Positions 5,956 to 24,393 of a stretch of 59,735 nt of DNA are shown one piece after another. The stretch lies in NCBI GenBank assembly GCA_902761275.1, contig CACWJS010000003.1:1-59735 (forward strand), read 5' to 3'. Position numbers and translations under genes: made by a program. The notes below the pieces were generated by a model. The model saw only the letters and a list, made by a program, of their open reading frames with translations, made no database searches and was not told the origin of the DNA. How positions within the stretch are numbered: position 1 is the first letter of the stretch; every line of letters starts with the position of its first letter. This DNA comes from an uncultured bacterium. Its GTDB lineage: Bacteria > Verrucomicrobiota > Kiritimatiellia > RFP12 > UBA1067.

Positions 5956-5958
5956 CAA

Positions 5959-5982: not shown

Positions 5983-5997
5983 TTTTGCGACCGAAAC

Positions 5998-6024
5998 AAT
6001 CCTGTCAATCCTGTAAATCCTGTC
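5998..6024 (+). repeat. 9-mer tandem repeat AATCCTGT(C/A) x3
   Basis: The reverse complement recurs at 11114-11141. Confidence 0.8.
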
Positions 6025-6092
6025 TAACAAACACACCTCGCGCACTCCGCGCCTCTGCGTGAGAAGAAATATCGAAAGAAAAGGAACACGCC

Positions 6093-7208: not shown

Positions 7209-7266
7209 GAATATGGTAAAATGTCAGCTGATAAATCTTGGTTGGTGCAAATGAAGGGTTTGTGAA

Positions 7267-7926: not shown

Positions 7927-7961
7927 GAGCGGCTTTTCGATTTTTCCCGTAGTGAAAACCA

Positions 7962-8042
7962 CGCCAAGCTGATGGTTGGAGCGAAGCGCAGAGGCCTGAG
8001 AGCCGATGGTCGCGGACGCGGAGGGTGTGTTTTGGCGGCATG
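7962..8042 (-). repeat. partial, rearranged inverted copy of the 3924-4337 element
   Basis: 7971-8006 matches the reverse complement of 4235-4270 (2 mismatches); 8011-8042 resembles that of ~4305-4336. Confidence 0.8.
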
Positions 8043-8075
8043 CGCGTATCCGCGGCAAAGCTAGCAAGCCCTAAG

Positions 8076-8137
8076 CCTAAGTGCGGCAGTTGAACTGGCG
8101 GAATCAACATCCCGCCAGTTCAACTGCCGCACTTAGG
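8076..8137. repeat. perfect 26 bp inverted repeat with 10 nt loop
   Basis: CCTAAGTGCGGCAGTTGAACTGGCGG-N10-CCGCCAGTTCAACTGCCGCACTTAGG. Confidence 0.95.
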
Positions 8138-8487
8138 ATAAGAATGCGCAGACAAACATCTGGGGTGTTGAAAGGTTGTATTCTGGGGGGCTGGTCGCTC
8201 TTTTGGACAAGGCGCCGGCCTATGGCAGAGTTGACGTCGTCAGAAGAAGGAACCATCGTGGAGTGATCATGACTGATCTTGTGAAGGTGAATTACGAAAA
8301 TCAGCCGGACAAGGATCCTGTCGGATGGACTGACGACCCCACTTGGAGCGTTTTCAGGAGAGGACTCGCCAGGAATTGCGGAGGGGGTAAATTGGTTACC
8401 GCACCAGATGGCGGCAAATACCACTACTCCTTCTATTTTGCTGTTGCTCCAGACGTTGACAAGTTGAACAAGTTCTACTGGAAGTAA
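8137..8487 (+). pseudogene. probable 5'-truncated gene fragment (or a 72 aa ORF from ATG 8269)
   Basis: Frame is open from the hairpin end (DKNAQTNIWGVERLYSGG...FYWK*) without a good start. Confidence 0.4.
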
Positions 8488-8539
8488 ACGCAATCATGCT
8501 ATAGCAACACTGCGGCGCAACTCGTGTTCCAGCGAGCTG

Positions 8540-8571
8540 CCGCCGCGTTCGTTGTGAGCGCGGCGGTTTTT
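8540..8571 (+). terminator. rho-independent terminator-like hairpin; repeated at 10116-10140
   Basis: CCGCCGCG-N11-CGCGGCGG followed by a T-run. Confidence 0.6.
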
Positions 8572-8658
8572 GCTGCAAAGACTAGATTCTCGCGGATTTG
8601 TTCGGCATGAGATTGAAACGTGTTGCACCGCGATGAACGTTCTGTGGACATGTGGTGC

Positions 8659-8688
8659 TTGACGTGCGGTCTGATAAGATGGTATAAT
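8659..8688 (+). promoter_or_regulatory. sigma70-type promoter of the abiE operon
   Basis: TTGACG-N18-TATAAT with extended TG. Confidence 0.7.
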
Positions 8689-8738
8689 TCGACCAAACAA
8701 ATGACTAGATCGAAGCCAATCATAGAAATAGTTTAACG

Positions 8739-9281
8739 ATGCTATTGAGATTTCAAGATTGTATGAAGCGTTTCGGATCGCCATATCAGATAGAGAAGGC
8801 GGTGCACGACGGGCGTTTGTTCAAAATGATGCCAGGCGTCTATTCCGAAACCGGCGAAGAGAGCGAGATAGAGGTGTTGCAGGCCAGGTACCCCAAGGCA
8901 GTGCTGACTTTGGACAGCGCGTACTACTACTACGACATGACGGACGAGATCCCGGAGTTGTATGTTCTTGCCACGGCGGACAATGCGCCTCGAATAAAGG
9001 AGCTGACCGTTAGGCAGGTATATGTTCCGAGCGAGGCGCTGATGGTCGGTGCGATGCAATACGATTACGAGGGGGAGTCGTTGCGCATCTACGACATTGA
9101 GCGGCTTCTGGTGGAGACAGCACGGATGAAAAACCTGATGCCCGCCGATTTATACAAGGAGGTTGTGCGCTGGTATCGTGCGAATCTTGAGAGACTTGAT
9201 TCATCGAAGATCGGCGAATACGCAGTGGCCTTTCCTCACAAGGATCGCATAATGTCGGTAATCGACGCGGAGATATATTGA
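8739..9281 (+). CDS. type IV TA antitoxin, AbiEi family
   Basis: N-terminal wHTH ending GVY; SAYYYYDMTDEIP; IYDIERLLVE; coupled to the AbiEii gene. Confidence 0.85.
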   Translation: MLLRFQDCMKRFGSPYQIEKAVHDGRLFKMMPGVYSETGEESEIEVLQARYPKAVLTLDSAYYYYDMTDEIPELYVLATADNAPRIKELTVRQVYVPSEALMVGAMQYDYEGESLRIYDIERLLVETARMKNLMPADLYKEVVRWYRANLERLDSSKIGEYAVAFPHKDRIMSVIDAEIY

Positions 9282-10087
9282 TGAAGCCACTGAAAGATCA
9301 GATAGAGGAACTTCAGTCCAAAGGCTATAGCGCCGTGTTGGCATCGGCAAAAGTCGTTCATGATGTTGTCTTGATGGCAATAAGCAGAAGTGGATTTAAG
9401 GTGAATGGGACGCTGAAGGGCGGCGTGGTGATGAGTGCGCTTACGAAAGACATCCGGCGCGCAACTCTTGACATGGACATAGACTTTGTCCATCACCCGA
9501 TAAGTGATGCCGGCGTGAGGCGGTTCGTCAATAGATTGTCAAAGTCCATGCCAGGACTTGACTTGGTCATCCGAGGCCGTGTGCTTGATCTTAAGCATGG
9601 AGACTATCGCGGCAAGCGGATATTCCTTGCGGTCAAGGATGAATCCATTCCACGGTGGATTAGGACCAAGATGGACATAGGGGTGCATACACACGAGGAT
9701 ATCAAACAAGTGGATGTGCGTTTTGACATTTCGAACGAAGATGGCTTTGTTGACCTTCAGGCGAATCCCATAGAGCAAATATTTGCAGAGAAGTTGCTTA
9801 GCCTTTTGCGGCATGGGGTTGTCTCAAATCGACCGAAAGACGTATTTGACCTTTATTACCTGTCAGAGAGAGTCTCTGTCGCAAAATTGAAGCCGTGTGT
9901 ACGGGAATTGATCTACGAGAACAAACGTTGTCGAGTGAACGACAAGGATGAAATGGTGCGAATGTTAGACATTGTCTTTAATGCGCGGCCTTTCCTGCGA
10001 CGTTTGAGCAATGCAAAAGCGAATTGGCTTCACGTTGATCCAGAAGAAGCGATCGCAGGAATCAGGCGATTGATCAAGAATTTGTAG
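9278..10087 (+). CDS. type IV TA toxin, AbiEii/AbiGii nucleotidyltransferase
   Basis: LKGG, RRATLDMDIDF, EQIFAEKL and RPKDVFDLYYL motifs. Confidence 0.9.
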   Translation: MMKPLKDQIEELQSKGYSAVLASAKVVHDVVLMAISRSGFKVNGTLKGGVVMSALTKDIRRATLDMDIDFVHHPISDAGVRRFVNRLSKSMPGLDLVIRGRVLDLKHGDYRGKRIFLAVKDESIPRWIRTKMDIGVHTHEDIKQVDVRFDISNEDGFVDLQANPIEQIFAEKLLSLLRHGVVSNRPKDVFDLYYLSERVSVAKLKPCVRELIYENKRCRVNDKDEMVRMLDIVFNARPFLRRLSNAKANWLHVDPEEAIAGIRRLIKNL

Positions 10088-10390: not shown

Positions 10391-10888
10391 ATGAAGTTCG
10401 GCGCGGCGATTTTGGTGGTGGCGTTGCTCGCTCTCTCCGCTTTTGCGGGGGCGCGGGTTGTCGTGCCGTCGCTGCCGGAGGCGGTGACGCCTGATGCGGA
10501 AGTAAGCACCAACATCGCGCTGAATGTCAATGCGGCGCGGCTGCGGACGCTGACGCTTTCAGTGGAGTTCGAATCGTGCGTGATGAACGAGGTGCTTGTC
10601 GCCATAGGCGCGGATGCGGACTTGGATGGTGATCTTTCGGTTGACGAAGCCGATATTGTGTTTGGCTGCGACTGCGGCGAGTGGTATCGCACCGATCTCC
10701 GCACGGGCACAGCTTCTACAGAAGGGTCTGACCCTTCTGTGGAAGCTACAAACGCGGTTGTCATCGGGAAGCGCGAGTTTGATCCTGCATGGAATCTCGT
10801 AAAGATCGTGCGGCGTGGATTCGGCGAGATAGGCGAGACGGTTTCGGTGGACGAGGAACGCATCCGGTTCGACATCAGGATCCGGTGA
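10391..10888 (+). CDS. hypothetical secreted protein
   Basis: Signal peptide; DADLDGDLSVDE Ca-binding-like motif; -10 element 6 nt upstream. Confidence 0.75.
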   Translation: MKFGAAILVVALLALSAFAGARVVVPSLPEAVTPDAEVSTNIALNVNAARLRTLTLSVEFESCVMNEVLVAIGADADLDGDLSVDEADIVFGCDCGEWYRTDLRTGTASTEGSDPSVEATNAVVIGKREFDPAWNLVKIVRRGFGEIGETVSVDEERIRFDIRIR

Positions 10889-12447
10889 TGGTGGACTGGT
10901 TCTATATCGGCTACTGCACTGTAATGGCGATGTTCGCCGTTGCGTTTGCGTACGCTGCTGCCTTTGGTCTCCGCGCGCTTCGCCGTTTGCCGCGCTCGAT
11001 TCTGCTTGGTTTTGCCGCAGCCGCGACTGTCGCAACCCTTACAGCGCAGAAGACGAACAATGTGCCGCCGAACATGAATCAGCCACAGATGCAACAGGGG
11101 GGTGGCGTTTCTCAGACAGAATTTACAGGACTGACAGGATTTGGAGAAGACAGTTCGAGTTGGAGAAATGAGAATTCCACTCTCCAACTCCAACTCGAAA
11201 CTCCAACTCTTAATCCTGTCCAAACAACAAGCGATGATATTGCGCGAGGCTGGCGCGTCGAATGTGCCGCGACAAATGAAAACATCTCCTACGAAATGCC
11301 GCCGAATGGATCGCTTGTCGGGAACTGGAACATCCACGGCGCAGCGTCATCTTTCGGAAACAATGTGGTTGATTTTGGCGTCTTGCGGACGAGCGGGACG
11401 CTCGTCCCTACCAATTGGTCGTTCCCTCTCGGCACGAATGATGAGGTGTTTTCGTCATTTTGGTATTTCATCGATGGACGCATCCGTCCAACTCCGCGAG
11501 ATGCCGCGCACGAAATCTGCGCTGTTGGCGTTCCAATGTCTGCCGTTCCAGGCCAAAGCCGACTGTGGCGGCTTGACGGCGACGATGGTGCCCGCATCCT
11601 CACATGGGAAAACTTCTTCCTCGGCGGCGACACAAACGCGCCTGTCAACGCGCAGATCATTCTCCGACCCAATGGCGATTTCATCACTCGTTCCAACGAG
11701 GTGGAAACCGCGTATCGCCGCGTCAACCCCGACGACTGGGATGATGATGGGATCCATAACGAGCGAGATGCGAACCCGGCAAGCTACGACGGAGATTTCT
11801 TTGGCGTGGTAAACAGCTTGCCGCCAAACGCGAATGCCGATGCCTACTACTTGCTTGATCTTTCGGTGGCAGGGGTTCTCGGAGTTGCGACAATCCGCGT
11901 CACGTGCGACGGAGTGGTTTTCCCGATATGCTTCACCATCGTTGAGCCTGAAAGTATTGTTGCGACGAGCGTGTGGTGCGAGACCAATGAATGTCCTGGC
12001 GTCGCGGGGAATTTTGCCGGGTACTTTGATGTTGCCGTCATGCCGACAAATGTTAGTTTTCAGGCTATCTTAACGGCAGAGCTTGGATATTCGGCGACAA
12101 ATGCCGTTGGCTTTTTTGCGTTGTCCGAGCATGTTGGTTTGCTCGACCACTCAGTTCATGGAGCGAATAATTGGCATGGAGTCGGCTGGGGCAATAGTTT
12201 TTCCGATACAGTAGCTTTCAAATATTTTCATCCACCGTGGGGGAATGGTGGATCGTTCACATGGCCGATAGAAAATGCATGGCGGTTGCGTTCTGATGGC
12301 TTTGTCACCAACCGAATGCCTTGGAGATCTTCATACGACCAACGATTTGAACTTGATGCCGATGGGACTACACGTATCAGGAAATTTGACTATGTGCTAC
12401 AACAGGGAACAAATCTAGAATTTCAAGTTATGGAGGAAGCAAGATGA
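10888..12447 (+). CDS. hypothetical membrane-anchored/exported protein, possible polymorphic effector
   Basis: ATG overlaps the upstream TGA; two N-terminal hydrophobic segments; DDWDDDGIHNERDANP Ca-binding-like repeat; AT-richer C-terminus. Confidence 0.7.
   Translation: MVDWFYIGYCTVMAMFAVAFAYAAAFGLRALRRLPRSILLGFAAAATVATLTAQKTNNVPPNMNQPQMQQGGGVSQTEFTGLTGFGEDSSSWRNENSTLQLQLETPTLNPVQTTSDDIARGWRVECAATNENISYEMPPNGSLVGNWNIHGAASSFGNNVVDFGVLRTSGTLVPTNWSFPLGTNDEVFSSFWYFIDGRIRPTPRDAAHEICAVGVPMSAVPGQSRLWRLDGDDGARILTWENFFLGGDTNAPVNAQIILRPNGDFITRSNEVETAYRRVNPDDWDDDGIHNERDANPASYDGDFFGVVNSLPPNANADAYYLLDLSVAGVLGVATIRVTCDGVVFPICFTIVEPESIVATSVWCETNECPGVAGNFAGYFDVAVMPTNVSFQAILTAELGYSATNAVGFFALSEHVGLLDHSVHGANNWHGVGWGNSFSDTVAFKYFHPPWGNGGSFTWPIENAWRLRSDGFVTNRMPWRSSYDQRFELDADGTTRIRKFDYVLQQGTNLEFQVMEEAR
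11114..11220 (+). repeat. in-frame composite hairpin element (ACAGGAT / CTCCAA units)
   Basis: 11174-11209 matches 43730-43765 with 1 mismatch; ends in AATCCTGTC. Confidence 0.8.
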
Positions 12448-13130
12448 ATGGTGTGCTTAAAACGATGGTCGGCTTGCTGGCTGCATGTCTTTTGCAGGTG
12501 GCATTTGCAACAACCGTTGAAGAGGCGCGAGCTCAGGCGCTGTCGTCGACAAACTACTGGGGTGTTTCATTTGCTGAATATCGTTTGCGGGTTGGCGAGT
12601 CTGTCCCTTTCCTCGCGACTAACGGAACGCTGTCGGCGCGTCAGGCCCTTTGCGATTGGTATGTGTCTCTTGCCGGATTCGTCTCACCAACCAATTCAGT
12701 GACTGACTATGAATCTTGGTTGGATGAGCAGGTCGTGGCGTTGTCGGCATATTCGCGCTTCCTGGTTGATCCACAGTTTACAAACGCTTGGGTGGCGGCG
12801 GCCTGTCGTCTCGGTGCTTTGCGAGATGCGATTCCGACAAAAGACGACCTCCGTATGGGTATGAAGAACAAGCTTTTTGTTGATGGACTTCTTGTAGACA
12901 ATAATACCGTCAAAGAAATCAAAGGGGATTTCCTAAGGGAACAGGATTTTGCATTTGCGCGGCAATCAGCGTCTGACATTCTTGCTCGCCCTGTTGTGGA
13001 TGTGTTTGGACAGAAGGGGATTCCCAAGCTTCCAATCGATGAGAGGAGTGCGTTTGCTTCAAATTATGTCGGCACGGCCCGCTTGTCTACGGAGGAGGCG
13101 AATGCGGTTCTTCAACAATTGAGCAGGTGA
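12444..13130 (+). CDS. hypothetical secreted protein, possible immunity partner
   Basis: ATGA overlap; signal peptide; AT-richer. Confidence 0.7.
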   Translation: MNGVLKTMVGLLAACLLQVAFATTVEEARAQALSSTNYWGVSFAEYRLRVGESVPFLATNGTLSARQALCDWYVSLAGFVSPTNSVTDYESWLDEQVVALSAYSRFLVDPQFTNAWVAAACRLGALRDAIPTKDDLRMGMKNKLFVDGLLVDNNTVKEIKGDFLREQDFAFARQSASDILARPVVDVFGQKGIPKLPIDERSAFASNYVGTARLSTEEANAVLQQLSR

Positions 13131-13175: not shown

Positions 13176-15449
13176 TCAGCTGCAGGGTTGCGGCGTGACG
13201 GCAAGGCGTTCTGCGAGGGTGGTGCGGCGCTCGCGCACGACGTTCGTGTCGATCGCGCGGTTTACCGCGTATGGAACGCCGATGAGAAGGACGAGCTTCT
13301 TTCCGCGCGTGATGGCGGTGTAGAGGAGATTGCGCTGCAGCATCACGTAGTGCTGCGTGTGAATCAGGACGATTACCGCCGGGTATTCCGACCCCTGCGA
13401 CTTGTGGATCGTCGTCGCGTAGGCGAGCACGAGTTCGTCGAGATCTCCTGCGTCGTACTTTACAGGCCGTCCATCGAATGTGACGATGAGCGAGCGATCC
13501 GTCGGGTCGACCGCCTTTATAAACCCGACGTCGCCGTTGTAGACATCCTTGTCATAGTTGTTCCGTAGCTGCATTACGCGGTCGCCTACGCGGAACGTCG
13601 TTCCGCCGCGGATCAAGGCCGCGCCCGATGGGTTGAGCGCCTTCTGCAGCTCGAAGTTGAGACTCTCCGTGCCGAGAAGATTGCGGCGCATCGGCGTGAG
13701 CACCTGCACGTCCTCGAGCGGGTCGAGCCCGAACTTGCGCGGAATGCGCGTCGTCATGAATTCGATTGCGCGCCTAAGGCACTGCTCAGGGTCTTCGCAC
13801 CGGACGAAGTAAAAGTCGGTATCGCCGCTTCTTATCTCGAGCGGCTCACCCGCGTTCACGTGGTGGGCGTTCGTGACGATGAGCCCGCCAGCGTCTTGTC
13901 GGAAGATCTGGTCGAGGCGCGTAAAGGCGATATTGCCGGACTTTATGAGATCGCCAAGGACATTCCCTGCGCCTACGCTCGGCAACTGGTCCGTATCGCC
14001 GACGAGCACTACCGCCGCAGTGGATGGAATCGCCGATAGCAGATCGTTTGCAAGCTTGATGTCGATCATCGACGTCTCGTCGAAGATAAAGACGTCGCCT
14101 TCAAGCGGGCTTTCCTTGTTGAACGTGAACTTGTTCGTTACGGGATTCCACTTGAGAAGACGGTGAATCGTCTGCGCCGCTGCGCCGACCGACTCTGACA
14201 TGCGTTTCGCTGCGCGACCCGTCGGCGCGGCGAGGACTACTTTAAGTTTTTTCGCGCCATAGATGTCGACGAGCGCGCGGATTATCGTCGTCTTGCCGAC
14301 GCCCGGCCCGCCGGTTATGATGGAGAACTTGCTCGACAGGCACTGCTCGAGAGCGTTCGCCTGCTGCGCGGCGAGCGAGAAGCCCGCTTTTTGCTCCCAC
14401 CATGCGACGGCCTTGCCCGCGTCTACGGGCGTGAAGCCGGGGAGGGAATCCCTTATTCGCTTTACATGCGAGGCCGTCTCGCGCTCGGCCCACCAAAGCG
14501 AACGCAGGTAGATGCGGCGGGGAGAGGTGTTTGAGTGTTTGAGTGTTTGAGTGTTTGAGTGTTTGGGTTGGTTGGCTGGTAGTGGGATTGGCTGGCTGGC
14601 GGGCGCGGCTTCGCTTTCCGCGATGACGCGGCCTTCGGCAATTTCCTTCTCAAGCGCTTCGCCAAGAATCTCGGTCGGTATTTCGGTGAGTTCGTTCGCG
14701 TGGAGAAGGAGGTCGTTCTCGAAAGTCCAGCAGTGTCCTGAGTCCTCTGCCTCCGTCTCGAGCGTGTAGGAAATTGACGCGCGCGCGCGAAGGGGCGAGT
14801 CCTTCGGGATGCCGACGGAGAGCGCGATGCGGTCGGCGGTAGCAAAGCCGATTCCCCAGATGTCGCGGCAGAGCTTGTAGGGGTCGGCCTTTACGATTGC
14901 TATTGCGTCTGGACCGTATTTGCGGACGATCTTCGTCATCTTCGCTATCGAGATGCCGTAGGTCTGGCCGAAGATCATATTCTCCCTCAGGGTCTCGTTC
15001 GCATGCCAGCTTGCGCGTATCTGCTCGATCTTCGCTTTGCCGAGCTTTGGCACTTCGACGAGCCGTGCCGATTGGTGGGAGAGGACATTCAGGGTGTCTT
15101 CGCCGAAGGTTTCGACGATGCGCTTTGCGAGAACCTTGCCGACGCCCTTTATGAGTCCCGATGCGAGATAGCGCTCTATGCCGACGAGGGATCTCGGCGC
15201 TACGCAGACGATTGACTCGGCCTTGAACTGTCGTCCGTGGACCTTGTCGGTCACCCACGAGCCGGTCGCGGAAATCTCCTCGCCTTCCCATACCGCCTGT
15301 GCCTTGCCGACGACGGTTATCTCGTTTAGTTGCCTGAGAGCGAAGCCGGAAGGGAGTTCGACATGGAGGACGGTGTAGCCGTTCTCGTCGTTGTGGAATA
15401 CGACCGACTTGATCGTTCCCTCGACTGTCTCGCTCGCTTCATCTGCCAT
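13176..15449 (-). CDS. recD2: ATP-dependent RecD-like helicase RecD2
   Basis: IKGVG HhH, GGPGVGKTT, DETSM, GDTDQLPSVG, YATTIHKSQGSEY. Confidence 0.96.
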   Translation of the reverse strand: MADEASETVEGTIKSVVFHNDENGYTVLHVELPSGFALRQLNEITVVGKAQAVWEGEEISATGSWVTDKVHGRQFKAESIVCVAPRSLVGIERYLASGLIKGVGKVLAKRIVETFGEDTLNVLSHQSARLVEVPKLGKAKIEQIRASWHANETLRENMIFGQTYGISIAKMTKIVRKYGPDAIAIVKADPYKLCRDIWGIGFATADRIALSVGIPKDSPLRARASISYTLETEAEDSGHCWTFENDLLLHANELTEIPTEILGEALEKEIAEGRVIAESEAAPASQPIPLPANQPKHSNTQTLKHSNTSPRRIYLRSLWWAERETASHVKRIRDSLPGFTPVDAGKAVAWWEQKAGFSLAAQQANALEQCLSSKFSIITGGPGVGKTTIIRALVDIYGAKKLKVVLAAPTGRAAKRMSESVGAAAQTIHRLLKWNPVTNKFTFNKESPLEGDVFIFDETSMIDIKLANDLLSAIPSTAAVVLVGDTDQLPSVGAGNVLGDLIKSGNIAFTRLDQIFRQDAGGLIVTNAHHVNAGEPLEIRSGDTDFYFVRCEDPEQCLRRAIEFMTTRIPRKFGLDPLEDVQVLTPMRRNLLGTESLNFELQKALNPSGAALIRGGTTFRVGDRVMQLRNNYDKDVYNGDVGFIKAVDPTDRSLIVTFDGRPVKYDAGDLDELVLAYATTIHKSQGSEYPAVIVLIHTQHYVMLQRNLLYTAITRGKKLVLLIGVPYAVNRAIDTNVVRERRTTLAERLAVTPQPCS
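14527..14600 (-). repeat. in-frame 8-mer tandem array (TCAAACAC x~5 plus degenerate units) inside recD2
   Basis: Translated as ASQPIPLPANQPKHSNTQTLKHSNT. Confidence 0.9.
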
Positions 15450-15736
15450 TTGCGAATATTATACCAAATGTAAGTCTGCGGCGTCCGAAGGCTCCGGGTG
15501 TGCCGAGACTTTTATGAACGAAAGCTCGGCATGTCGGCATCGTATCGATTCCACATATACGGTTCCATATGTGCCGGCAAATTAGCGCTAACGCGCGGCC
15601 ACAAAAACTCGGCTGCGTTGCCGGACGGCGCTTCGCGCCCTATGCGCGGCATCCCGTCGCAACGGTCTGTAGGCCCTTGGCCTCCGCCGTGCGCCGTTCC
15701 GCCGCGCAAGCCTATCGGCTTCCGGCAGCGCACCGA

Positions 15737-15975
15737 GACACGAATGCCGCCTACGCGGCACACGAATTTTCACGAATGGAATCACAAAACCCATTGCCTC
15801 CCTGAATCCGCTGCCTATCTCGTCGTAGACTTCATAGATCGCTCTGCGAATTGCGTAGCATTCATCTGGGTAAATCAAACCTTTGTTCATAAGGCGATAG
15901 TTATAGCAAAAGTTGCCCAAATTCGTGTAGCCCCGAAGGGGCGTATTCGTGTGCCGCGTAGGCGGCATTCGTGTC
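15737..15975. mobile_element. 31 bp perfect inverted repeats (CACGAAT units) enclosing a GxxExxY remnant
   Basis: GACACGAATGCCGCCTACGCGGCACACGAAT at 15737-15767; exact reverse complement at 15945-15975; mobility itself is inferred. Confidence 0.65.
15792..15890 (-). pseudogene. truncated GxxExxY family gene
   Basis: MNKGLIYPDECYAIRRAIYEVYDEIGSGFREAM; breaks just before the motif Tyr; TGCTATAAC upstream. Confidence 0.75.
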
Positions 15976-16272
15976 CTGCGCAATGTCGCAGACCGAAGGT
16001 CGTAGCGCAGTGGCGATGCACGGCGAAGGTCTCGATAGTCAATAGTCTCCTTGAAGGGCAAAAGGGTGCTCAGACGAGACCTTCACGCCGATGCATCGAC
16101 TCTGCGCACAGGCGGCGAAGCCGCGCGACTTGCGCAGGGTTCGTGGTTGCGCGAAGCGCCCCTATCCCATTGACTTTGCATAAATAGCTCGTTGCACCCT
16201 CCGTATCAAATCCTTCGCTATGCCGCAGACCTACGGGTGAACCTTCTTGGGGTGGATGGCGTTTAACGGGGT

Positions 16273-18423
16273 ATGAAAAGCAAGATTATCGTTGTTTGCG
16301 CCGTTGTTGCAGGCGCATTGAGTGGAATGGGAGATGAGGCGAACACCTCGACGAACGCGGTGGCCGACTTGGGGACGGTCGTCGTCGAGGGCTCGGCCCT
16401 CTCAAAGTACCGGCCAGAGACGGTGGAGGGTGCGACATTCACCGGCCTTGCTCCTGAAAAGTCGCCGACGGTCGTCGACACGCTGACCGAGGACTTTATC
16501 CGCGAGCACAACCCGACTGACCTACACGACCTTCTCCGCTATGTGCCTGGTGTCGAGACTGGCGGCAAGTCGCTTCTCGTCCGCCAGCCGGGAACATTCC
16601 AGATACGCGGCATGGGCGGCACGGAGCCCGCATTTGACGGTATTGTGCCGATTGGGCTCGGCGCGGGGCTTTTCATGGATCCGTTCCTCATGGAGCGCGT
16701 CGAAATCGTGAAGGGCCCGATTGGCTCGCTTTCCGGCGGCGCGGGATCGCAGCAGAACAACTCAGGCGCGGGCGGTTCGGTCAATATGTACTTGAAGGGC
16801 GCCAACTTCCGCGGAGACAGGATCGACTTCCAGGAGAACACCTCCGTCGGGCGTCATACCTGGCGCCAGCGCGGCATGATCGACGCGAACGAGGTCTATG
16901 GCGACGACAAGTTCGCCGTCCGCGCAATCGGCGCGTTCGACGTTTTCTCGCCGGCCTATCTTGGCGAGGGTTCGCAGAAGGGTGCCGACCCGCGGCAGTC
17001 CTACACGATTGCGCCGTCGTTCGCGTGGTGTCCTGTCGAAAATGTGACGATCGGGCTCAAGTCGATGTTCCAGAAGACCGACCAGCCGAGCTACATCGGC
17101 GTCCCCGTCTGGCATGGACGGCCCGGCGGCGGCTATAGCTGGTACGAGTCGTCGTGCCGCAAGGGCGACCGCTCGAAATACGACTCGATGTACCTGAATC
17201 CCTACGTCGACTGGCAGGTCACCGACGACTGGCTTCTCAAGTTCGGCGGCGCGTTCATGTTCTCCGACTGGGAGCAGAGGACACGCGAGCCGTACATGAA
17301 CAACAGGGAACTTTCCGATTTCTACGAGACCGGCGAGTGGACGAGCGGCGAGAAGTACATGACGTCGGGCTTTTCCGAGTCTGATCGCATAAGCCGCAGC
17401 TATAACCTCTACGCGCGCTCGGTCTACACGAAGGATGAACTGCCGTGGGGCTTCAGGAACACGCTTGTCGTTCAGCCCGACTTCTGGTACCGCGAGTCGA
17501 CGAGCGGCTTCGGCGCGCCCGTCACGCGCTACGGCACGACGCTTCAGGACTCTCTTGGCTGGGGCTGGGTGACACTCCTTGGCGGCGTCCGCTACGACTG
17601 GTTCACGGAGAATCCGCAGACGACTACTGCGTCCAATGGCACGACCACGCACTACCATCGCGCAAACGAGTTTGCGTTCTCGCCGCGCGGCGGTCTCACG
17701 GTCCAGCCGCTCGACTGGCTCGTATTCTTCGGCAACCTTTCCCAGACGCGCACTCCGACACTCGGCTACCGCGATGCCGACGGCAACAGGCCGACCGATC
17801 CGTGGACGGCGACGCAGATGGAAGGGGGCTTTCGCGTCCGTCCCGTCGAGAAGCTTTGGTTCTCGGCCTCTGTCTACCGCATCGACCAGCGCAACACGCC
17901 TGTCGCCGAGACGATCAACAATGACACGTACTACTATTTCGAGGGCAAGAGCAACTCGCGTGGCGTTGAGCTCTCGCTCGCGGGCGACATCACCGAGAAC
18001 TGGACTGTCCTCGCGATGTACTCGTACAACCGCTACGAGAACCGCAACGCCACTGGAGCTGCGCCGTCGGTCTTCCGCCGCAATCCCAACCACACGTTCT
18101 CGCTCAACACCTCCTACCGGTTCGACTGCTGTGATCTCCTTCGCGACATCGTGGTCGGATGTGGCTATCGCTTCCGCTCGAAGAGCTTCGCGACGATGCG
18201 CGGCGCGTTTGTAGACAACAACCTCTATTTTGCGCACAGCCACGTCTTCGACGTCAACGTGTCTGTTCCGCTGACGAAGTTCGGCGGGCCCGAGGATTGG
18301 ACGCTGACGCTTGGCGTCCGCAACCTCTTCGGCGAGAAGTACTTCGAGTCCGCGCGGCACTTCTACGAGTGCCTCGTCGGCGAGCCGCGCACGTTCGAGA
18401 TCGGTCTCCGCGCAAGGTTCTGA
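16273..18423 (+). CDS. TonB-dependent receptor (siderophore-receptor-like)
   Basis: Signal peptide; TVVVEG TonB box; IRG and MERVEIVKGP plug motifs; C-terminal GEPRTFEIGLRARF. Confidence 0.92.
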   Translation: MKSKIIVVCAVVAGALSGMGDEANTSTNAVADLGTVVVEGSALSKYRPETVEGATFTGLAPEKSPTVVDTLTEDFIREHNPTDLHDLLRYVPGVETGGKSLLVRQPGTFQIRGMGGTEPAFDGIVPIGLGAGLFMDPFLMERVEIVKGPIGSLSGGAGSQQNNSGAGGSVNMYLKGANFRGDRIDFQENTSVGRHTWRQRGMIDANEVYGDDKFAVRAIGAFDVFSPAYLGEGSQKGADPRQSYTIAPSFAWCPVENVTIGLKSMFQKTDQPSYIGVPVWHGRPGGGYSWYESSCRKGDRSKYDSMYLNPYVDWQVTDDWLLKFGGAFMFSDWEQRTREPYMNNRELSDFYETGEWTSGEKYMTSGFSESDRISRSYNLYARSVYTKDELPWGFRNTLVVQPDFWYRESTSGFGAPVTRYGTTLQDSLGWGWVTLLGGVRYDWFTENPQTTTASNGTTTHYHRANEFAFSPRGGLTVQPLDWLVFFGNLSQTRTPTLGYRDADGNRPTDPWTATQMEGGFRVRPVEKLWFSASVYRIDQRNTPVAETINNDTYYYFEGKSNSRGVELSLAGDITENWTVLAMYSYNRYENRNATGAAPSVFRRNPNHTFSLNTSYRFDCCDLLRDIVVGCGYRFRSKSFATMRGAFVDNNLYFAHSHVFDVNVSVPLTKFGGPEDWTLTLGVRNLFGEKYFESARHFYECLVGEPRTFEIGLRARF

Positions 18424-18476
18424 CGGGTAACCCTCCCGAGAGTATGGTATAATACCTATATCACAAGGAGGATTGT

Positions 18477-20720
18477 ATGGTCGACTACAATGCGCTGAAG
18501 AAGAAGTTTCCGACGAAGGATCCCCAGAAGAAAAAGAAGCTCGCCGCAATCAAGGCGATAAAGCGCGAGTATGCCGCCAAACGTGCGGCTCTCGGCGGCG
18601 GCGCACCTACTTTCAAGAAAGGCGTCGTCTTCTATGCCGTCGTGATCCTCGGGCTCATGATCCTCGGCTCGCTCGTCCTCTCTGTAACCGGTAAGGGCGG
18701 CCCCAAGGAAATCTCCCGCGCGCAAATGCTCGTCAGGAAGTCGATAGACTCCGTAGCCGTCGCGCTCGGCCGCTACCGTTACCACGTCGGCAGCTATCCG
18801 TCGACAGAGGAAGGGCTCGAGGCGCTCGCGGCAATTACGCCGCGGAAGAAGGGCTGGAACGGCCCGTACGTGAACCATGTCGTGAAAGACCCCTGGGGGC
18901 ACGAATACGTATATGTCAACAACGGTGAGAACGAATACCCGACGCTTTACTCGAAGGGCCCCGACGGCAAGGCGGGAACGACGGACGACGTCCTTCCGGA
19001 TCGCGCGCTTTACGATGCTCCTTTCAAGGACACGTCGTGGACGAAGGGGTGGATGCCGTACTACCTGCGCGGCTACGTGCTTGCGCCAGACAAGCGTACT
19101 AAGTCCGCGATCGAGGAAGAGGTCAAGGCCGTGCTCGCGGCTGAGCAGGGATCTGCCGAGGGCGAGTTCCTCCTGCGAGACGGCTGGGAGTTTTCGCGCG
19201 ACACGACGCATGGCGACGGGCGCTGCCTTCGCACCGTAGAACTGCCTCTTGGCTCTGCTGGCAAGTTCGTTGCGCTCAGGTTCTGCGGCGTGATGGCGAG
19301 CATGGAGGTATTCCTCAACGGCGAAAAGGTCGGCGGCTGTGACGACAGCTGCACGTCGTTCGAGGTTGACATTTCCGCGAAGATCAAGTTCGGCGAGAAG
19401 AACGAGCTTCTCGTAAAGTCTGGCGCGGCGAAGCGCAATGGCCTTTTGGGCTCTTGCGCCGACGTCTGTCGCAGTGTCACGCTTGTTGTCGAGGACGCGG
19501 AAGACCGCGCGATCTGGGGCTCGGTCAAGATCACTACGCCAGAGATTTCGCCCGAGCGCGCGAAGGTGCATGTCGAATACCTTACGCCCGTGAGTACGAA
19601 CCCGATTGTCAACGAGTTCGAGGTAGAGCATCCTGTTCTCTGGGATGTCGTGAATCCGAAGCTCTACGAGACGACGATTTGCGGCAAGAAGTATCGTTAC
19701 GGCTTTCGTACCGCCGAGTTCACCGAGAACGACGGCTTTCGCCTGAACGGCCGCCGCGTCCAGCTGAAGGGCGTGAACTTGAATCCCGATTTTGGGCAGC
19801 TCGGCATGTCGTTCGACAAGGGCGCGCTACGCCGCTTGCTTGCGACCTTGAAGGACATGGGCGCTAATGCGATAAGGATGCAGAACAATCAACCGGCGGA
19901 TGAAGTGCTCGATCTCTGCGACGAGATGGGAATATTGGTTCTTGCATCCTTGCCCGAGAAGAGCAATCCCAGTGTCGTTGCACTGCCGCAGGTGGCCGAT
20001 TTCGAGGAGGTTGAGGAGTTGTTGGACGCATGCGCCATGCCAAAGGAACGCTATTGGCTCTACCGCTCGTACTGGAACGACAGGAAGGATACGATCCATC
20101 TCCTGCCGCACTGGAACTGGGATGGGCGAGAGGGCGAGAAGGTCACGATTGTATGTTACACAAGCGGCGACGAAGCGGAGCTTTTCGTCAACGGCGAGAG
20201 CGCGGGACGCATGAAGAAGGCAACGGATGCCGGCACTGTCGTCGGCAAGGACGATCCGAACCGCTACAAGCTGACGGAACGCTATCGCCTCGTCTGGGAA
20301 GTTCCCTACGAGCCGGGCGAAATCAAGGTCATTGCGTTCAGAAATGGCCGCACGATGGGCGAGGACTCGTGCAAGACGGCGTACAAAGCGGCGGCGGTGA
20401 AGCTTACGCCCGAGCAGTCTGAACTCGCTGACGGCGAGCTCGGCTTCGTGAAGGTCGAGATAGAGGATGATGACGGAACCGTGCTGCCGCTTGCAAAGGA
20501 CCGCGTGAATTTCAAGCTTGAGGGGCCTGGCGAAATCGTGGCCGTTGGCAATGGTTCGCACAACGGGCTCGACTCGTTTGCCGAGACATCGTCGCATCCG
20601 CTCTACTACGGGCGCGCGCTCGTGATCGTCCGCAGGACCGGCGGCTCGGGGCTTCCGCTAAAGCTCACGGCGTCCGCGCCGTCGGTGAGATCTGCGTCCG
20701 TGACCTTCAGCCGCAAGTAG
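18477..20720 (+). CDS. GspG-type pseudopilin domain fused to a degenerate GH2 glycosidase scaffold
   Basis: TM helix; YPSTEEGLEAL..WNGPY..KDPWGHEYVY..SKGPDG..DD; then GH2 jelly-roll, shortened barrel, LLPHWNW and Ig-like domains. Confidence 0.85.
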   Translation: MVDYNALKKKFPTKDPQKKKKLAAIKAIKREYAAKRAALGGGAPTFKKGVVFYAVVILGLMILGSLVLSVTGKGGPKEISRAQMLVRKSIDSVAVALGRYRYHVGSYPSTEEGLEALAAITPRKKGWNGPYVNHVVKDPWGHEYVYVNNGENEYPTLYSKGPDGKAGTTDDVLPDRALYDAPFKDTSWTKGWMPYYLRGYVLAPDKRTKSAIEEEVKAVLAAEQGSAEGEFLLRDGWEFSRDTTHGDGRCLRTVELPLGSAGKFVALRFCGVMASMEVFLNGEKVGGCDDSCTSFEVDISAKIKFGEKNELLVKSGAAKRNGLLGSCADVCRSVTLVVEDAEDRAIWGSVKITTPEISPERAKVHVEYLTPVSTNPIVNEFEVEHPVLWDVVNPKLYETTICGKKYRYGFRTAEFTENDGFRLNGRRVQLKGVNLNPDFGQLGMSFDKGALRRLLATLKDMGANAIRMQNNQPADEVLDLCDEMGILVLASLPEKSNPSVVALPQVADFEEVEELLDACAMPKERYWLYRSYWNDRKDTIHLLPHWNWDGREGEKVTIVCYTSGDEAELFVNGESAGRMKKATDAGTVVGKDDPNRYKLTERYRLVWEVPYEPGEIKVIAFRNGRTMGEDSCKTAYKAAAVKLTPEQSELADGELGFVKVEIEDDDGTVLPLAKDRVNFKLEGPGEIVAVGNGSHNGLDSFAETSSHPLYYGRALVIVRRTGGSGLPLKLTASAPSVRSASVTFSRK

Positions 20721-20788
20721 GGCATTTTATGGTATAATATGAAAAACGCGTTTCCGCGTCGTCGCGGGTCGCGTTGGGGCAAGTCGAC

Positions 20789-21706
20789 ATGGAATCGCTA
20801 TTCAGCATAGCGGCAATTGCGTTCTGGGCGCTTTGCGCGGCCGGAATAGCATGCTATGCCTCCGAGGTCGCGAAGGACGTTACCTACGTCACTCTCGCGG
20901 ACGGTCGCCGCCAGGAGCGGTCGATACCGATTGTGTTCAAGCTTCTTCTCCCGTTTGTGGGCAACCTCGACAAGCTTGTCTCCCGCCCGATGTTCGCGAA
21001 GCAGATCGAGACGGCCGACTGGATGCTAGTCGCGGCGGGCTTCGAGGGGCTTCTATCCGGACGCGAGTTCGTCGCGCTCAAGATTCTCTGCCCGATCGTC
21101 CTTGGCGCCGCGTGGACCATTCTCATTGCGCTTCTCGGCGCTGCGCTTCCGGACTCGCCGTTCTCGGCCGGTTTCGTGCCCATAAGTTTACTTGGCTTTG
21201 CCCTCTTCTACCTCCAGCCGATGATGTGGCTAAGGGGCGCCCTCAAGAAACGCCATCTTGCGATAATGAAGGCGTTGCCGTTTGTCCTCGACATCCTTAC
21301 TCTTTCTGTAGAGGCCGGCATGGATTTCATAAGCGCGCTTCAGCGCAACTGCCAGTCGCGGAAGCTCGACCCTCTCAACGAGGAGCTTCTTCGTATGACG
21401 AAGGAGATACAGGTGGGCCTGTCGCGCCGCGAGGCTCTCCGGAACATGGCCGATCGCGTCCGCCAGAGCGACCTGAGGTCGGTCGCGTTTGCGCTCATCC
21501 AGGCCGACGAACTGGGTGTCTCTATCGGCGCGATACTCCGCATACAGTCAGAGCAGTTGAGAAGCCGCCGCTTCGACCGGGCCGAGAAGCTGGCGCACGA
21601 GGCGCCGACGAAAATGCTCGGGCCGCTGATGCTTTGCATTTTCCCCGCAGTGTTCATAATCCTGCTCGGGCCAGTCCTGTCGCAGGCGATGAAGGGGATG
21701 CTGTAA
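20789..21706 (+). CDS. type II secretion F-family / TadC-like inner-membrane protein
   Basis: ALPFVLDILTLSVEAGMDF..QADELGVSIGAILR..AEKLAHEAPTKMLGPL. Confidence 0.9.
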   Translation: MESLFSIAAIAFWALCAAGIACYASEVAKDVTYVTLADGRRQERSIPIVFKLLLPFVGNLDKLVSRPMFAKQIETADWMLVAAGFEGLLSGREFVALKILCPIVLGAAWTILIALLGAALPDSPFSAGFVPISLLGFALFYLQPMMWLRGALKKRHLAIMKALPFVLDILTLSVEAGMDFISALQRNCQSRKLDPLNEELLRMTKEIQVGLSRREALRNMADRVRQSDLRSVAFALIQADELGVSIGAILRIQSEQLRSRRFDRAEKLAHEAPTKMLGPLMLCIFPAVFIILLGPVLSQAMKGML

Positions 21707-21724
21707 ACAGAGGAAAGACAAAAA

Positions 21725-23095
21725 ATGTCGAAACGACCAGAATTGCTTATCACGTCCGGCCCGATGTCCGGCACGCGATTCGAGGTGGGGCCAGGGGGCG
21801 TGCGTCTCGGCCGCTCCTCCTCGAACGACGTGAGCATACCCGACGAGGAGCTCTCCCGCAACCACTGCCTCTTCGAGCAGTCCGGCGAGGCGGGGATACG
21901 CGTGACGGATCTCGCGAGCGCAAACGGCACGTTCGTCAACGGCGAGCAACTTGGCTCTGATTCCCACGGGCTCAAGGTGGGCGACTCGATCGAAGTCGGC
22001 TCGACCGCGATCAGCGTAATCGGCGAGGATGCGTCTCTTGCATCGCGTCCTGCTGGCGCCAAGGTCGCCGCGACAATCGACCTTGGCCTTGGCTCGGCTT
22101 CCGCCGCAGCGCCGCAGGGAGAAGTCGCGTCGCGCAAGCCGTCCAAGGCGCAGGGCGGCCGTCAGCGCACGATGATTGCCAATGTCCTCTGGATAGTCGC
22201 CGCGCTTACGGTGGCTGCGGCGATAGCCGTCGTCCTCTGCGCCCCGCGCGAATCCGAGAAGCCAATCGCTCCCGTCGTAGAGGAGAAGCCCGAGCAGAAA
22301 CTCGTCTCGCTACGATACGAGAAGGTCGAGGCAGACGCCTCGCGGGTGTTCAGCTATAGGATGGAAATCGACGAGTCTGGGGTCCTGCGCGTCGCGTTCG
22401 ACGACGTGCCTGGCGAGAACCGCCACGTCGACAAGAAGGCGAAGCTTTCCGACAAGGCGAAGAAGAGGATCCTCGAGATTCTCGAAAAGCCCGGGTTCGC
22501 CGCGCTCGAGGACGAGTATGTCGGTTCGAGCGTGGAGGACGAAAACGCTCTCAAGAGCTTCAGGATCCGCGTCGTCCGCTGGAACAGCGTCAAGGACGTT
22601 CTCGTCGAGAACACTCAGGAGCCCGACGCCTTCCGCGAAGTGAGGGATTTGCTCGAGGCGTTCTCCCGGAACGAGCTCGGCATCTGGGCTATACAGTATT
22701 CGAAGGAAAAGCTGATCGAGCTCAGCGACGAGAGCGCGAAGGTCGGCGATTCCAAGTGGGACGACCGCGAGGTCGAGTACGGCAACCTGAGCGCCGCCGT
22801 CAAGGCCTACAAGGACGCGCTCTTCTACCTTGAGACGATCAATCCGAAGCCCGACGGCTACGCGGAGATAAAGGAGAAGCTCGCGCGCACCGAGGAGGAG
22901 CTCAAGCAACGCTACGAAGACCAGCGCTTCCTCGCTGACAAGGCGATGAACCTCGGCGACTGGGAGGCGGCGCAGAACGAGCTCAAGATACTGTGCGAGC
23001 TTGTGCCGGACAGGGACGACCCGCGCCACGCCGAGGCCAACGCGCGTCTCGTCGACGTCGAAAACCGCATGAAGAAGGCGAGGGGTGGAAAATGA
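21725..23095 (+). CDS. FHA-domain membrane protein with helical C-terminus
   Basis: LGR..LSRNH..DLASANGTFVNG; one TM helix. Confidence 0.88.
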   Translation: MSKRPELLITSGPMSGTRFEVGPGGVRLGRSSSNDVSIPDEELSRNHCLFEQSGEAGIRVTDLASANGTFVNGEQLGSDSHGLKVGDSIEVGSTAISVIGEDASLASRPAGAKVAATIDLGLGSASAAAPQGEVASRKPSKAQGGRQRTMIANVLWIVAALTVAAAIAVVLCAPRESEKPIAPVVEEKPEQKLVSLRYEKVEADASRVFSYRMEIDESGVLRVAFDDVPGENRHVDKKAKLSDKAKKRILEILEKPGFAALEDEYVGSSVEDENALKSFRIRVVRWNSVKDVLVENTQEPDAFREVRDLLEAFSRNELGIWAIQYSKEKLIELSDESAKVGDSKWDDREVEYGNLSAAVKAYKDALFYLETINPKPDGYAEIKEKLARTEEELKQRYEDQRFLADKAMNLGDWEAAQNELKILCELVPDRDDPRHAEANARLVDVENRMKKARGGK

Positions 23096-24393
23096 GGGGA
23101 ATCTTTCTTTCAATAGCGCTCGCCGCGTTCGCCGCATTCGCAGAAGAGTCGAAGGCGATACGCTGCGACTTCTCGAGCCAGCCGGAGGGCGCCACCGTGG
23201 TTGTCGACGGCGTTACGCGCGGTGTCACGCCGCTTACGCTCTACGATCTTGCGCCTGGCCGCCGCCATGTCCGTTTCGAACTGGCCAACTACGACGGCGT
23301 CGACGAGTTCATGTTTCTGCGTGAAGGCGGCGCGGTCAGCAAGAACGCCGTGCTCCGTCCTGTAAAGGGGATACTGCTCCTCGTCACCGAGCCGGAGGGG
23401 TGCGACGTTTCGCTCGACGGCATGTCTCTTGGCAAGACGCCTCGCCTCGTTACGTCGCTTGACGCCAAGGACACGTATCGTCTTCTCGTGCAGAAGCCCG
23501 GCTACCAGCCGCGCACCGTCGAGGTGAAGTTCAACGGGCGCACGCCGCTCGTAAAGAACGAGTCGCTTGTCATAGATTCCGGTGTCGTTGAGGTGACGAG
23601 CGATCCTGCCGGCGCCGAGGTTATGGTTAACGGACATCCCCGCGGGAGGACGCCGGTGAAGGTTGGTGGCGTTCCAAAGGGGCGTGCGACCGTTGCGCTC
23701 AAGAAGAACGGCTTTGCGGAGGAATCGCGCGAGCTCGCGATCGTTGCAGGCGAGAGCCAGACGCTGTTCGTGAAGCTCAAAGGGCTTCCCGGCACGATGT
23801 CGCTCTCGTCTGTTCCTGACGGGGCGAGGTTCTACGTCAACGACAGGCCAGAGGGGAAGGGCCCGATATCTCTTACTGGGCTTAATCCCGGCAGCTACAC
23901 GATCCGAGTCGAGAAGGAGGGTTTCGCCACTGCGACCAAGACCGTAACGCTCGAGAACGGCGGCTCGATTGTAGAGGAATTCCGGCTCGACAACGTAATG
24001 GGGCGCATCGAGGTGAGGACGATTCCGTCCGGCGTGGACGTGTTTCTTGACGGCGGCCGTGTCGGTACGACAAAGTCGAAAGGCGACGATGCCGAGGCGA
24101 GCGAGGTGCTTGCGATAGAGAACGTGCACGAGGGCGAGCATACCCTCGTCTTTAAGTGCGAAGGTTACGCCGACGCGACGAAGCACCCAGTCGTCGAGAA
24201 CCGCAAGACCCAGACTGTAAACGCACGGCTTAAGCGCGTCTTCACGCCGAACGTAGAGATTACGACGGACAGCGGCGTTCACCGCGGTGTTCTCATCTCC
24301 AACACGGCGAACGGTGTCGAGGTAGAGGTTTCCCTCGGCATCAACCGCATGTTCCCGCACACCGAGATCAGGAAGCTCGAGTTCATCAAGTAG
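23092..24393 (+). CDS. PEGA-domain protein, secreted
   Basis: Signal peptide; about 5 S.P.GA.V.VDG..G.TP repeats; ATGA overlap. Confidence 0.9.
   Translation: MRGIFLSIALAAFAAFAEESKAIRCDFSSQPEGATVVVDGVTRGVTPLTLYDLAPGRRHVRFELANYDGVDEFMFLREGGAVSKNAVLRPVKGILLLVTEPEGCDVSLDGMSLGKTPRLVTSLDAKDTYRLLVQKPGYQPRTVEVKFNGRTPLVKNESLVIDSGVVEVTSDPAGAEVMVNGHPRGRTPVKVGGVPKGRATVALKKNGFAEESRELAIVAGESQTLFVKLKGLPGTMSLSSVPDGARFYVNDRPEGKGPISLTGLNPGSYTIRVEKEGFATATKTVTLENGGSIVEEFRLDNVMGRIEVRTIPSGVDVFLDGGRVGTTKSKGDDAEASEVLAIENVHEGEHTLVFKCEGYADATKHPVVENRKTQTVNARLKRVFTPNVEITTDSGVHRGVLISNTANGVEVEVSLGINRMFPHTEIRKLEFIK

Follow-up and report, generated by a model that had tools for sequence, protein, structure and literature searches.

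The stretch of DNA analysed here (the window: 59,735 nucleotides of contig CACWJS010000003.1, from an uncultured Kiritimatiellia bacterium) carries a gene in which a domain of the GspG type, known from the major pseudopilin of type II secretion systems (T2SS), is joined to parts of a beta-galactosidase of glycoside hydrolase family 2 (GH2). Table 1 lists the features of this gene and of its surroundings. That a single open reading frame (ORF) unites a basic leader, a hydrophobic helix, a GspG domain and GH2 domains had been claimed in an earlier reading of the letters alone (the original prediction), and both the ORF and the Pfam matches have borne this out. T2SSG (PF08334) matches residues 86-170 with 79.6 bits against a cut-off of 21, GH2_N residues 245-314 over profile positions 64-132 of 169 only, the GH2 TIM-barrel family residues 418-492 over positions 5-79 of 302 only, DUF4982 residues 553-626, and GH2_C5 residues 642-743. 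A weak match to the GH2 Ig-like domain has been found at residues 349-402 (19.3 bits, under the cut-off of 23), and with it all four flanking domains of a GH2 enzyme (sugar-binding, Ig-like, DUF4982 and C5) have been detected, the sugar-binding domain partially and the Ig-like domain under its cut-off. The motifs quoted in the prediction have all been located as well, with FKKG/VVFYA at residues 46-54, NAIRMQNNQP at 464-473 (nt 19866-19895), and SNPSVV at 496-501, which runs straight into the end-of-barrel segment as had been described. As the ORF and its domains have been borne out and every quoted motif has been found where it was given, the original observation is confirmed.

Table 1. Coordinates of the fusion gene, of its parts, and of other features in the window (TM, transmembrane; pLDDT, per-residue model confidence; dN/dS, ratio of nonsynonymous to synonymous change).
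Feature	Position	Strand	Remarks
ORF, 747 aa	18477..20720	+	single continuous reading frame
Shine-Dalgarno sequence AAGGAGG	18466..18472	+	5 nt before the ATG at 18477; read directly
Residues 1-48, basic tail (15 K/R, 3 D/E)	18477..18620	+	genus-wide conservation from residue 1
Residues 49-70, single TM helix after KKG	18621..18686	+	model helix 50-70; no F+1/E+5 prepilin consensus
Residues 71-80, Gly/Pro-rich linker between TM helix and GspG domain helix	18687..18716	+	pLDDT 57
Residues 81-175, GspG-fold globular domain with DPWG...GPDG..GTTDD	18717..19001	+	PF08334; PDB GspG chains
Residues 176-245, ancestral orphan-protein extension (DTSWTKGW... motif) and helical linker into GH2	19002..19211	+	
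Residues 246-340, GH2 sugar-binding domain remnant	19212..19496	+	directly after 30-residue deletion
Residues 341-415, GH2 Ig-like domain	19497..19721	+	0/52 invariant positions replaced
Residues 416-492, TIM-barrel stub	19722..19952	+	Pfam positions 5-79 of 302; RTSHN changed to RMQNN
Residues 493-515, junction segment in place of ~200-220 barrel residues	19953..20021	+	only near-neutral part
Residues 516-630, barrel end and DUF4982	20022..20366	+	dN/dS 0.07-0.20
Residues 631-747, GH2 C-terminal domain 5, then stop codon	20367..20720	+	dN/dS 0.07-0.14
Downstream trio: single-domain T2SSF protein (310 aa), FHA protein with TM segment (456 aa), five-repeat PEGA protein (466 aa)	20774-24393		
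EcoRI-type adenine methylase	4753-5955		within likely defence island
GmrSD-N plus HNH nuclease	6093-7208		within likely defence island
AbiEii-family nucleotidyltransferase toxin	9278-10087		within likely defence island
Two ORFs without any Pfam match	10789-12447, 12444-13130		after likely defence island

Alignment to the solved GH2 structure 9bey_A (826 aa) places residues 254-372 on 92-208, 373-490 on 245-371, and 516-743 on 593-822; at the jump from ~371 to 593, ~220 barrel residues are replaced by ~25 in the window protein. TIM-barrel strands 3-8 are missing together with the acid/base position and the nucleophile region. Orthologs of intact length and 95% N-terminal identity carry ...WSIGNE... 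and ...(Y/T)SESAS... at the deleted sites, and ...RTSHN... where the window protein has RMQNN. In the GH2 signature, the Glu of the W-S-x-G-N-E motif is the acid/base, and the nucleophile Glu presumably lies, by analogy, in the ...SES... motif of the orthologs, its exact residue being immaterial to the verdict. The family has been assembled as a non-redundant set of 155 rows, with 37 full-length, 30 gutted (T), 6 intermediate (M) and 59 small (C) forms, and in the N-terminal tree the window protein belongs to a clade of 12 rows (support 99) nested among full-length sisters. The acid/base Glu column is deleted throughout this clade (12/12) and present in 37/37 full-length rows, which likewise all keep nine markers in the barrel and the sugar-binding domain (37/37); the reduced rows (30 T, 6 M, 59 C) have without exception lost the acid/base N-E pair. 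A second in-frame deletion, which the original prediction had missed, comprises 30 residues of the GH2 sugar-binding domain (246-275 of the orthologs) and has its junction at nt 19211/19212. The NCBIfam scores of the window protein are 334.7 bits for GalB and 287.1 for GalA against cut-offs of 900; the full-length orthologs also fall short of the GalB cut-off (657 bits) and are consequently to be regarded as relatives, not equivalogs. The view of the GH2 part as catalytically gutted has thereby held, since relative to the orthologs the acid/base position and the whole nucleophile-bearing segment are deleted. Judged from these missing parts, the window protein is predicted to be unable to hydrolyse sugars, and with only two of eight barrel units left, any glycan binding would have to use a site other than the ancestral sugar pocket.

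That the protein is still an enzyme, acting through other residues or as one half of a split enzyme, is very improbable. The conservation and predicted folding of the retained parts would agree with residual catalysis, but the ~200-220 missing barrel residues include the acid/base position, and the RTSHN motif is altered. Moreover, a search of the window genome (89% complete) with the deleted barrel segment of the closest full-length ortholog as query has found no separate gene for it; the only matches have been complete paralogous GH2 genes at 40% identity, on which ground the split enzyme has been rejected. Nor has a close second copy of the fusion gene been found in this genome.

The window genome is a fragmented bin of 256 contigs, a circumstance that would favour an assembly artefact or a chimera peculiar to this bin. 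We give this explanation next to no probability and regard it as already refuted, as ENA, JGI and Logan assemblies contain the same 747-aa protein in eleven clusters (90% identity), and two metagenome loci of 10 kb show the gene amid the same neighbouring genes. Furthermore, two contigs (X3 record 8, 18836-20900, and X8 record 21, 18959-20084) each span both deletion junctions, and two more (X4 records 16 and 18) cross one junction each; these bridging contigs come from three independent studies and have shown 0 differences. Fifteen public runs, two of them possibly the source of the sequence, contain half or more of the words sampled from the stretch, and the listed runs belong to 12 studies labelled as rumen, bovine gut or metagenome. 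The fusion is thus supported by reads and not unique to this assembly, and the conservation of fusion and deletion in relatives, which had been left to be examined, has been found in all 12 rows of the clade, drawn from several sources and with identical deletion end-points. Loose contig ends at 19896-19939 in X4 and X8 run on into sequence that resembles what full-length genes have at RTSHN and after strand 2, and intact alleles or paralogs therefore coexist in these samples with the gutted allele.

Selection on the remnant has been estimated by Nei-Gojobori counts, with sites taken as independent, from the three genes of the 747-aa clade for which DNA was available. For remnant codons 246-515 the dN/dS values are 0.19, 0.17 and 0.16 (synonymous/nonsynonymous differences, Sd/Nd, of 32/22, 37/23 and 13/7), with P against neutrality of 1.4e-8, 2.3e-10 and 8.9e-5. 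A neutral decay of the fusion, which would have overturned the original prediction, is accordingly not what has been observed (0.16-0.19, P <= 9e-5). In the same clade, dN/dS amounts to 0.05-0.08 in the N-terminal module, 0.04-0.08 in the GspG domain (residues 81-175), and 0.10-0.14 in the C-terminal domains, while the remnant columns between full-length genes give 0.04-0.10 in the three closest pairs and up to 0.28 over all 8 pairs. In an independent, older gutted clade (5 genomes, 743-749 aa), the proportion of synonymous differences has reached saturation (pS 0.66-0.91), and the nonsynonymous proportion in the remnant is 0.27-0.51 (P <= 2e-6). The rate of synonymous change (dS) varies between regions of the same gene pair, from which it follows that alleles recombine. 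Positions invariant in 6 full-length genes have been replaced, and the replacements fixed in the window clade, at 18/75 sites in GH2_N, 13/60 in the barrel stub and 6/12 in the junction, as compared with 0/52 in the Ig-like domain, 0/76 in C5, 3/83 in DUF4982 and 0/68 in the GspG domain; clade-fixed replacements are concentrated in the two active-site-forming domains. The window protein is a pseudoenzyme by descent: it is nested among intact orthologs, its catalytic parts have been lost, and purifying selection has acted afterwards.

Across the 25 species-level genomes considered in the genus (G015 and G018 were not retrieved), the gene exists as a GspG-only form of 224-236 aa in 11, as a full-length fusion in 2 plus one split over two contigs, as a barrel-gutted form of 743-749 aa in 6, and as GspG with DUF4982/C5 (379-436 aa) in 2; 3 genomes have stayed unresolved. 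Taken over the whole set, one orthologous gene occurs in graded lengths of ~963-997, 669-799, 594-644, 379-473 and 224-236 aa, with the smallest fusion forms keeping only the two beta-sandwich domains of GH2, and with deletion end-points that vary between lineages. The tree of the N-terminal module accounts for the T class with 9 separate origins, of which well-supported branches (95 or more) require at least 5, and the tree of the C-terminal module rejects a single gutted clade (p-AU 0.0082, approximately unbiased test). As reconstructed from these trees, the barrel-gutted and smaller forms arose several times independently. The gain of the GH2 part is seen less sharply: forcing all 74 fusion rows into one clade under a site-heterogeneous model has yielded a log-likelihood (lnL) 24.9 above that of the free tree (p-AU 0.84), with basal supports of 46-79, and quick LG+G4 trees conflict at the base of the genus, the GspG-only rows being basal in one and 15/19 of them nested in an enlarged one. 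Apparently, GH2 was joined to the GspG-like module once within one genus and was then reduced repeatedly, the single gain being claimed only as the best topology found, since the base of the genus is poorly resolved. Five partial sequences (P0010, P0013, P0017, P0018, P0062) and L122, which runs off its contig, were left out of trees and counts. Regarding the order of events, a 777-aa form has 17/19 of the barrel-stub changes in common with the 747-aa clade and is as the full-length genes at 17/18 of the sugar-binding-domain positions; the barrel was therefore probably lost first, unless the 777-aa form is a recombinant. In two loci of the closest full-length relatives, a 780-aa tandem second copy (L028 6428-8770 and L025 6931-9273) directly follows the full-length fusion gene. 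Apart from the first ~11 residues and a TM helix, this copy has lost the tail as well as the GspG domain; its GH2 part is complete and has every catalytic motif, and an alignment of 772 residues with copy 1 shows 84% identity.

The N-terminal module is related to GspG in its globular domain, to which PDB GspG/PulG/EpsG/XcpT chains have been matched at E 1e-9 to 3e-12, and it falls under the cut-off of the GspG equivalog TIGR01710 (73.6 against 88.85 bits). No match to the N-methylation motif PF07963 has been obtained in the window protein at E <= 0.01, and the G/FTLxE prepilin motif is absent from it, the sequence at this place being KKG and then VVFYA. Seven residues (K10, F11, P12, K35, P44, G49 and Y53) are invariant over 76 genus sequences. 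In the AlphaFold2 (AF2) model, the TM helix 50-70 is split from the GspG helix 81-104 by the low-confidence Gly/Pro linker. A gene of 199-264 aa with the same plan of tail, TM helix and GspG domain is carried by 12/12 genomes from other families of the order (12 fetched of 16 searched); the Gly before the helix occurs in 0/12 of these homologs, two of them (L095, L099) have CxxC..CxxC pairs in the tail, and the N-terminal tail of a further sequence (P0158) matches Pfam Zn_ribbon_3, features that argue for a cytoplasmic, functional tail. When residues 1-230 were used as query in an exhaustive HMMER search, 51 representatives were matched at E <= 1e-30 and, with the threshold at E <= 1e-10, 747, most of them ~200-290 aa long, and the newly found long representatives were all GH2-derived (12/12). 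Five sequences (P0145, P0157, P0177, P0179, P0253) with two to five tandem GspG domains, one of them with leucine-rich repeats, are unrelated to the GH2 fusion. In eight annotated relatives, the neighbours of the gene are housekeeping genes (hisI, thiC, ruvB, nucleoside phosphorylase and others) and not secretion genes, and a canonical 143-aa GspG with ...AG/FTLIE lies in a pseudopilin operon elsewhere in the same genome (G000:C29). The N-terminal module exists throughout the order as a stand-alone, single-copy paralog of the major pseudopilin of type II secretion, and is not the canonical GspG itself. The protein can be read as an orphan GspG fold on a signal anchor with a cytoplasmic tail, its topology, its periplasmic site and the lack of cleavage being predicted.

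The original prediction had seen a glycosidase scaffold repurposed as a glycan-binding or structural head on a pilus or pseudopilus subunit with a GspG domain. The GspG domain and the gutted but retained scaffold have stood; the pilus subunit is not supported. A true subunit, processed by prepilin peptidase and assembled into a T2SS or type IV pilus with the GH2 shell as its head, could draw on the GspG domain above its Pfam cut-off, on the genus-invariant Gly49 before the hydrophobic helix, on three prepilin-peptidase homologs and nine secretin-domain matches in the genome, and on the T2SSF-domain gene directly downstream in the window. Against this, neither F+1, nor E+5, nor an N_methyl match is present, and the score under the equivalog cut-off, the conserved 48-residue tail, and the order-level homologs without Gly, some with CxxC pairs or a Zn-ribbon match in the tail, point away from a pilin. 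Glu5 is required for pseudopilin assembly. Likewise, the Gly/Pro linker interrupts the long helix that pilins use for packing, in relatives the gene stands alone among housekeeping genes, the T2SSF neighbour is common to close relatives only, and the canonical GspG operon is found elsewhere in the genome. Taking both sides into account, a pilus subunit appears improbable.

The AF2 model of the window protein has a mean pLDDT of 84.3 and a predicted template-modelling score (pTM) of 0.76. Its residues 226-747 superpose on intact GH2 galactosidases with Z of 24-26 and a root-mean-square deviation (rmsd) of 2.6-3.2 Å over 490-507 residues, a predicted structure in which the GH2 shell stands and the core is missing. 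On the former active-site face of the remnant, six new Cys have been found at residues 250, 270, 288, 292, 327 and 331 (nt 19224-19469), arranged as two CxxxC pairs and two further Cys. They make up 6 of the 18 replacements in the sugar-binding domain and derive from three Tyr, two Gly and one Trp, each by one base change. All six are present in 12/12 clade rows and in 0 sister full-length rows; at 2/6 of them synonymous TGC/TGT turnover has occurred within the clade, and the Tyr to Cys change at the last Cys position is also seen in three other gutted lineages (17/30 T rows). As for disulfide machinery, one DSBA-family match has been found in the window genome, and no match to DsbB or VKOR in the same 89%-complete genome. 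It is conceivable, if doubtful, that the exposed former active-site face has been rebuilt by selection into a new site, in which case the protein would be a periplasmic receptor or a redox or metal sensor, coupled through its TM helix to the cytoplasmic tail. If true, repeated excision of the barrel core would be a recurrent natural route from a tethered glycosidase to a non-catalytic receptor module.

As the best explanation of these observations, we consider it fairly probable that a GspG-like protein, anchored in the inner membrane and not a pilin, here bears a pseudoenzyme as its ectodomain. The encoded protein would be bitopic in the inner membrane: its conserved basic tail would lie in the cytoplasm, and one TM anchor, probably not cleaved off, would lead through a flexible linker to a GspG-fold domain in the periplasm. 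To the C-terminus of this N-terminal module, a GH2 beta-galactosidase of five domains would have been fused, most likely once, in one Kiritimatiellae genus, giving a membrane-tethered periplasmic galactosidase. In the window lineage, the barrel core (strands 3-8, with acid/base and nucleophile) was excised in frame, and afterwards the sugar-binding domain would have lost 30 residues and had its aromatic face at the active site removed or replaced. The surviving remodelled N-domain, Ig-like domain, barrel stub, DUF4982 and C5 would keep the GH2 shell, which selection would retain because it serves the GspG-like protein as an ectodomain for structure or binding, without catalysis. Its conservation suggests that the shell has a function of its own.

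Several observations weigh against this explanation. GspG-only orthologs function without any GH2 part, and the RNA evidence consists of one 172-nt contig on the gene from one RNA library, which is no proof of transcription. The alignment supplied to AF2 held full-length relatives and may have imposed the GH2 arrangement on the model; the genus-invariant G49, together with the three prepilin-peptidase homologs, leaves cleavage possible; and the dN/dS estimates derive from three clade genes, with simple counts and assumed independence of sites. The 23-codon junction gives dN/dS of 0.5-1.0, not significant, and the GH2-derived part of the smallest (C) forms is under weaker constraint (0.37-0.46); both would also fit a slow decay. 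In one locus (L035 1-2694), a full-length allele carries an in-frame TAG in place of the Glu of its relatives (partial ORF, codon 338), and the tandem copy starts after 2694; it is a single metagenome contig, in which a sequencing error is possible. The N-module of a 229-aa sequence (P0127) is 81% identical to that of a 741-aa gutted form and nests in that clade, possibly as a secondary truncation or as a cut at a contig end. Following from this sequence and the stop allele, truncation is not always excluded.

In part, the same observations bear on a different explanation, in which the GH2 part is tolerated baggage in a slow reductive evolution: only the GspG-like module would matter, the GH2 part would be whittled down by in-frame deletions, and selection would act on foldability or harmlessness. 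It is supported by the graded length series within one orthologous gene, by the near-neutral junction segment, by the GspG-only orthologs in 11/25 genus genomes, by the nonsense allele, and by a GH2-part dN/dS that climbs from 0.04-0.10 in the closest full-length pairs over 0.16-0.19 in the 747-aa clade to 0.37-0.46 in the C forms. However, a stop in the linker would be the easiest route of loss, and yet 0 GspG-only genes lie inside the fusion clade in the best tree of the resolved genus genomes. One gutted clade is still open and alignable beyond synonymous saturation, 0/128 invariant positions have been replaced in the Ig-like domain and C5, and the dN/dS of the remnant lies inside the range of intact enzymes (0.04-0.28). 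The six replacements to Cys, kept through synonymous turnover, resemble a rebuilding and not drift. Weighing these points, we regard baggage as the main rival, possible but less likely, and a pseudoenzyme ectodomain kept by selection as the preferred reading.

In the window, the fusion gene is preceded by a TonB-dependent receptor gene and followed by the single-domain T2SSF, FHA and PEGA genes. The order of this trio is common to close relatives only; in G004 and G009 the trio lies on the other side or is absent, and other genomes of the genus and order differ. An operon link with T2SSF, FHA and PEGA has been rejected on account of this restriction, and a glycan link through the TonB-dependent receptor because its best NCBIfam matches are siderophore-receptor families, all under their cut-offs. 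No Rfam family has been found at threshold in 15300-21000. A perfect 31-nt inverted repeat (15737-15767 and 15945-15975, with 177 nt between the arms) is situated in the intergenic region between a recD2-like helicase gene and the TonB-dependent receptor gene, and neither an Rfam nor a tRNA match has been obtained at 15737-15975. Further upstream, a likely defence island at 4753-10087 has a G+C content of 0.50-0.56 as against ~0.60.

Pseudoenzymes are as a rule identified from point mutations of their catalytic residues. In one uncultured rumen Kiritimatiellae genus, one orthologous gene shows the whole path, from the stand-alone form through the intact fusion and independent excisions to the small forms, with the remaining parts still under selection. 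It presents a natural experiment on the parts of a five-domain glycosidase that can persist in the absence of the barrel, and on how a pseudoenzyme is remodelled after catalysis has been lost, and it bears also on the role of a conserved, unstudied orphan GspG-domain protein of the order. The public family names include 'beta-galactosidase', 'GH2 TIM barrel-domain containing protein' and 'type II secretion system protein GspG'. As such names misdescribe the gutted forms, counts of carbohydrate-active enzymes (CAZymes) in rumen metagenomes that include them overstate the galactosidase capacity.

Compared with known systems, the likeness of the window protein to the T2SS major pseudopilin GspG (PF08334, TIGR01710; PDB 5wda, 1t92, 3g20, 3gn9, 2kep) is found in the globular domain, including DPWG... 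and GxDG..GTxDD. Unlike GspG, it lacks a prepilin cleavage/methylation motif, possesses a conserved 48-residue tail, a Gly/Pro linker after the TM helix and ~50 extra conserved residues after the domain, and is encoded by an orphan gene outside secretion operons. With GH2 beta-galactosidases that contain DUF4982 and a C-terminal beta-sandwich (BuGH2A 5t98/5t99, 9bey, BgaD 4ypj, BgaA 4cu6; NCBIfam GalA/GalB), the likeness is one of domain order. This type has been named the 'DA type 5' architecture in a survey according to which all five known GH2 architectures share the central barrel; 't2ss' and 'pilin' have 0 occurrences in its text (Talens-Perales et al., 2016; PMC5145203). In contrast to DA type 5 enzymes, the window protein is without Pfam barrel positions 80-302, both catalytic regions and 30 residues of the sugar-binding domain. 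Full-text searches of the literature, with subscription journals not covered, have returned no description of a GspG-domain/glycosidase fusion or of barrel-excised GH2 proteins. Chitinase-like lectins are non-catalytic descendants of glycosidases. Further such descendants are the beta-amylase-like BAM9 (PMC12046210) and heparanase 2 (PMC12406646). All of these resemble the window family in a glycosidase fold that has been kept by selection after catalysis was lost. In such descendants, the whole catalytic fold is reportedly retained and the activity lost by point changes. In the window family, by contrast, six of the eight barrel units have been excised, repeatedly and with varied end-points, and the peripheral domains have been retained.

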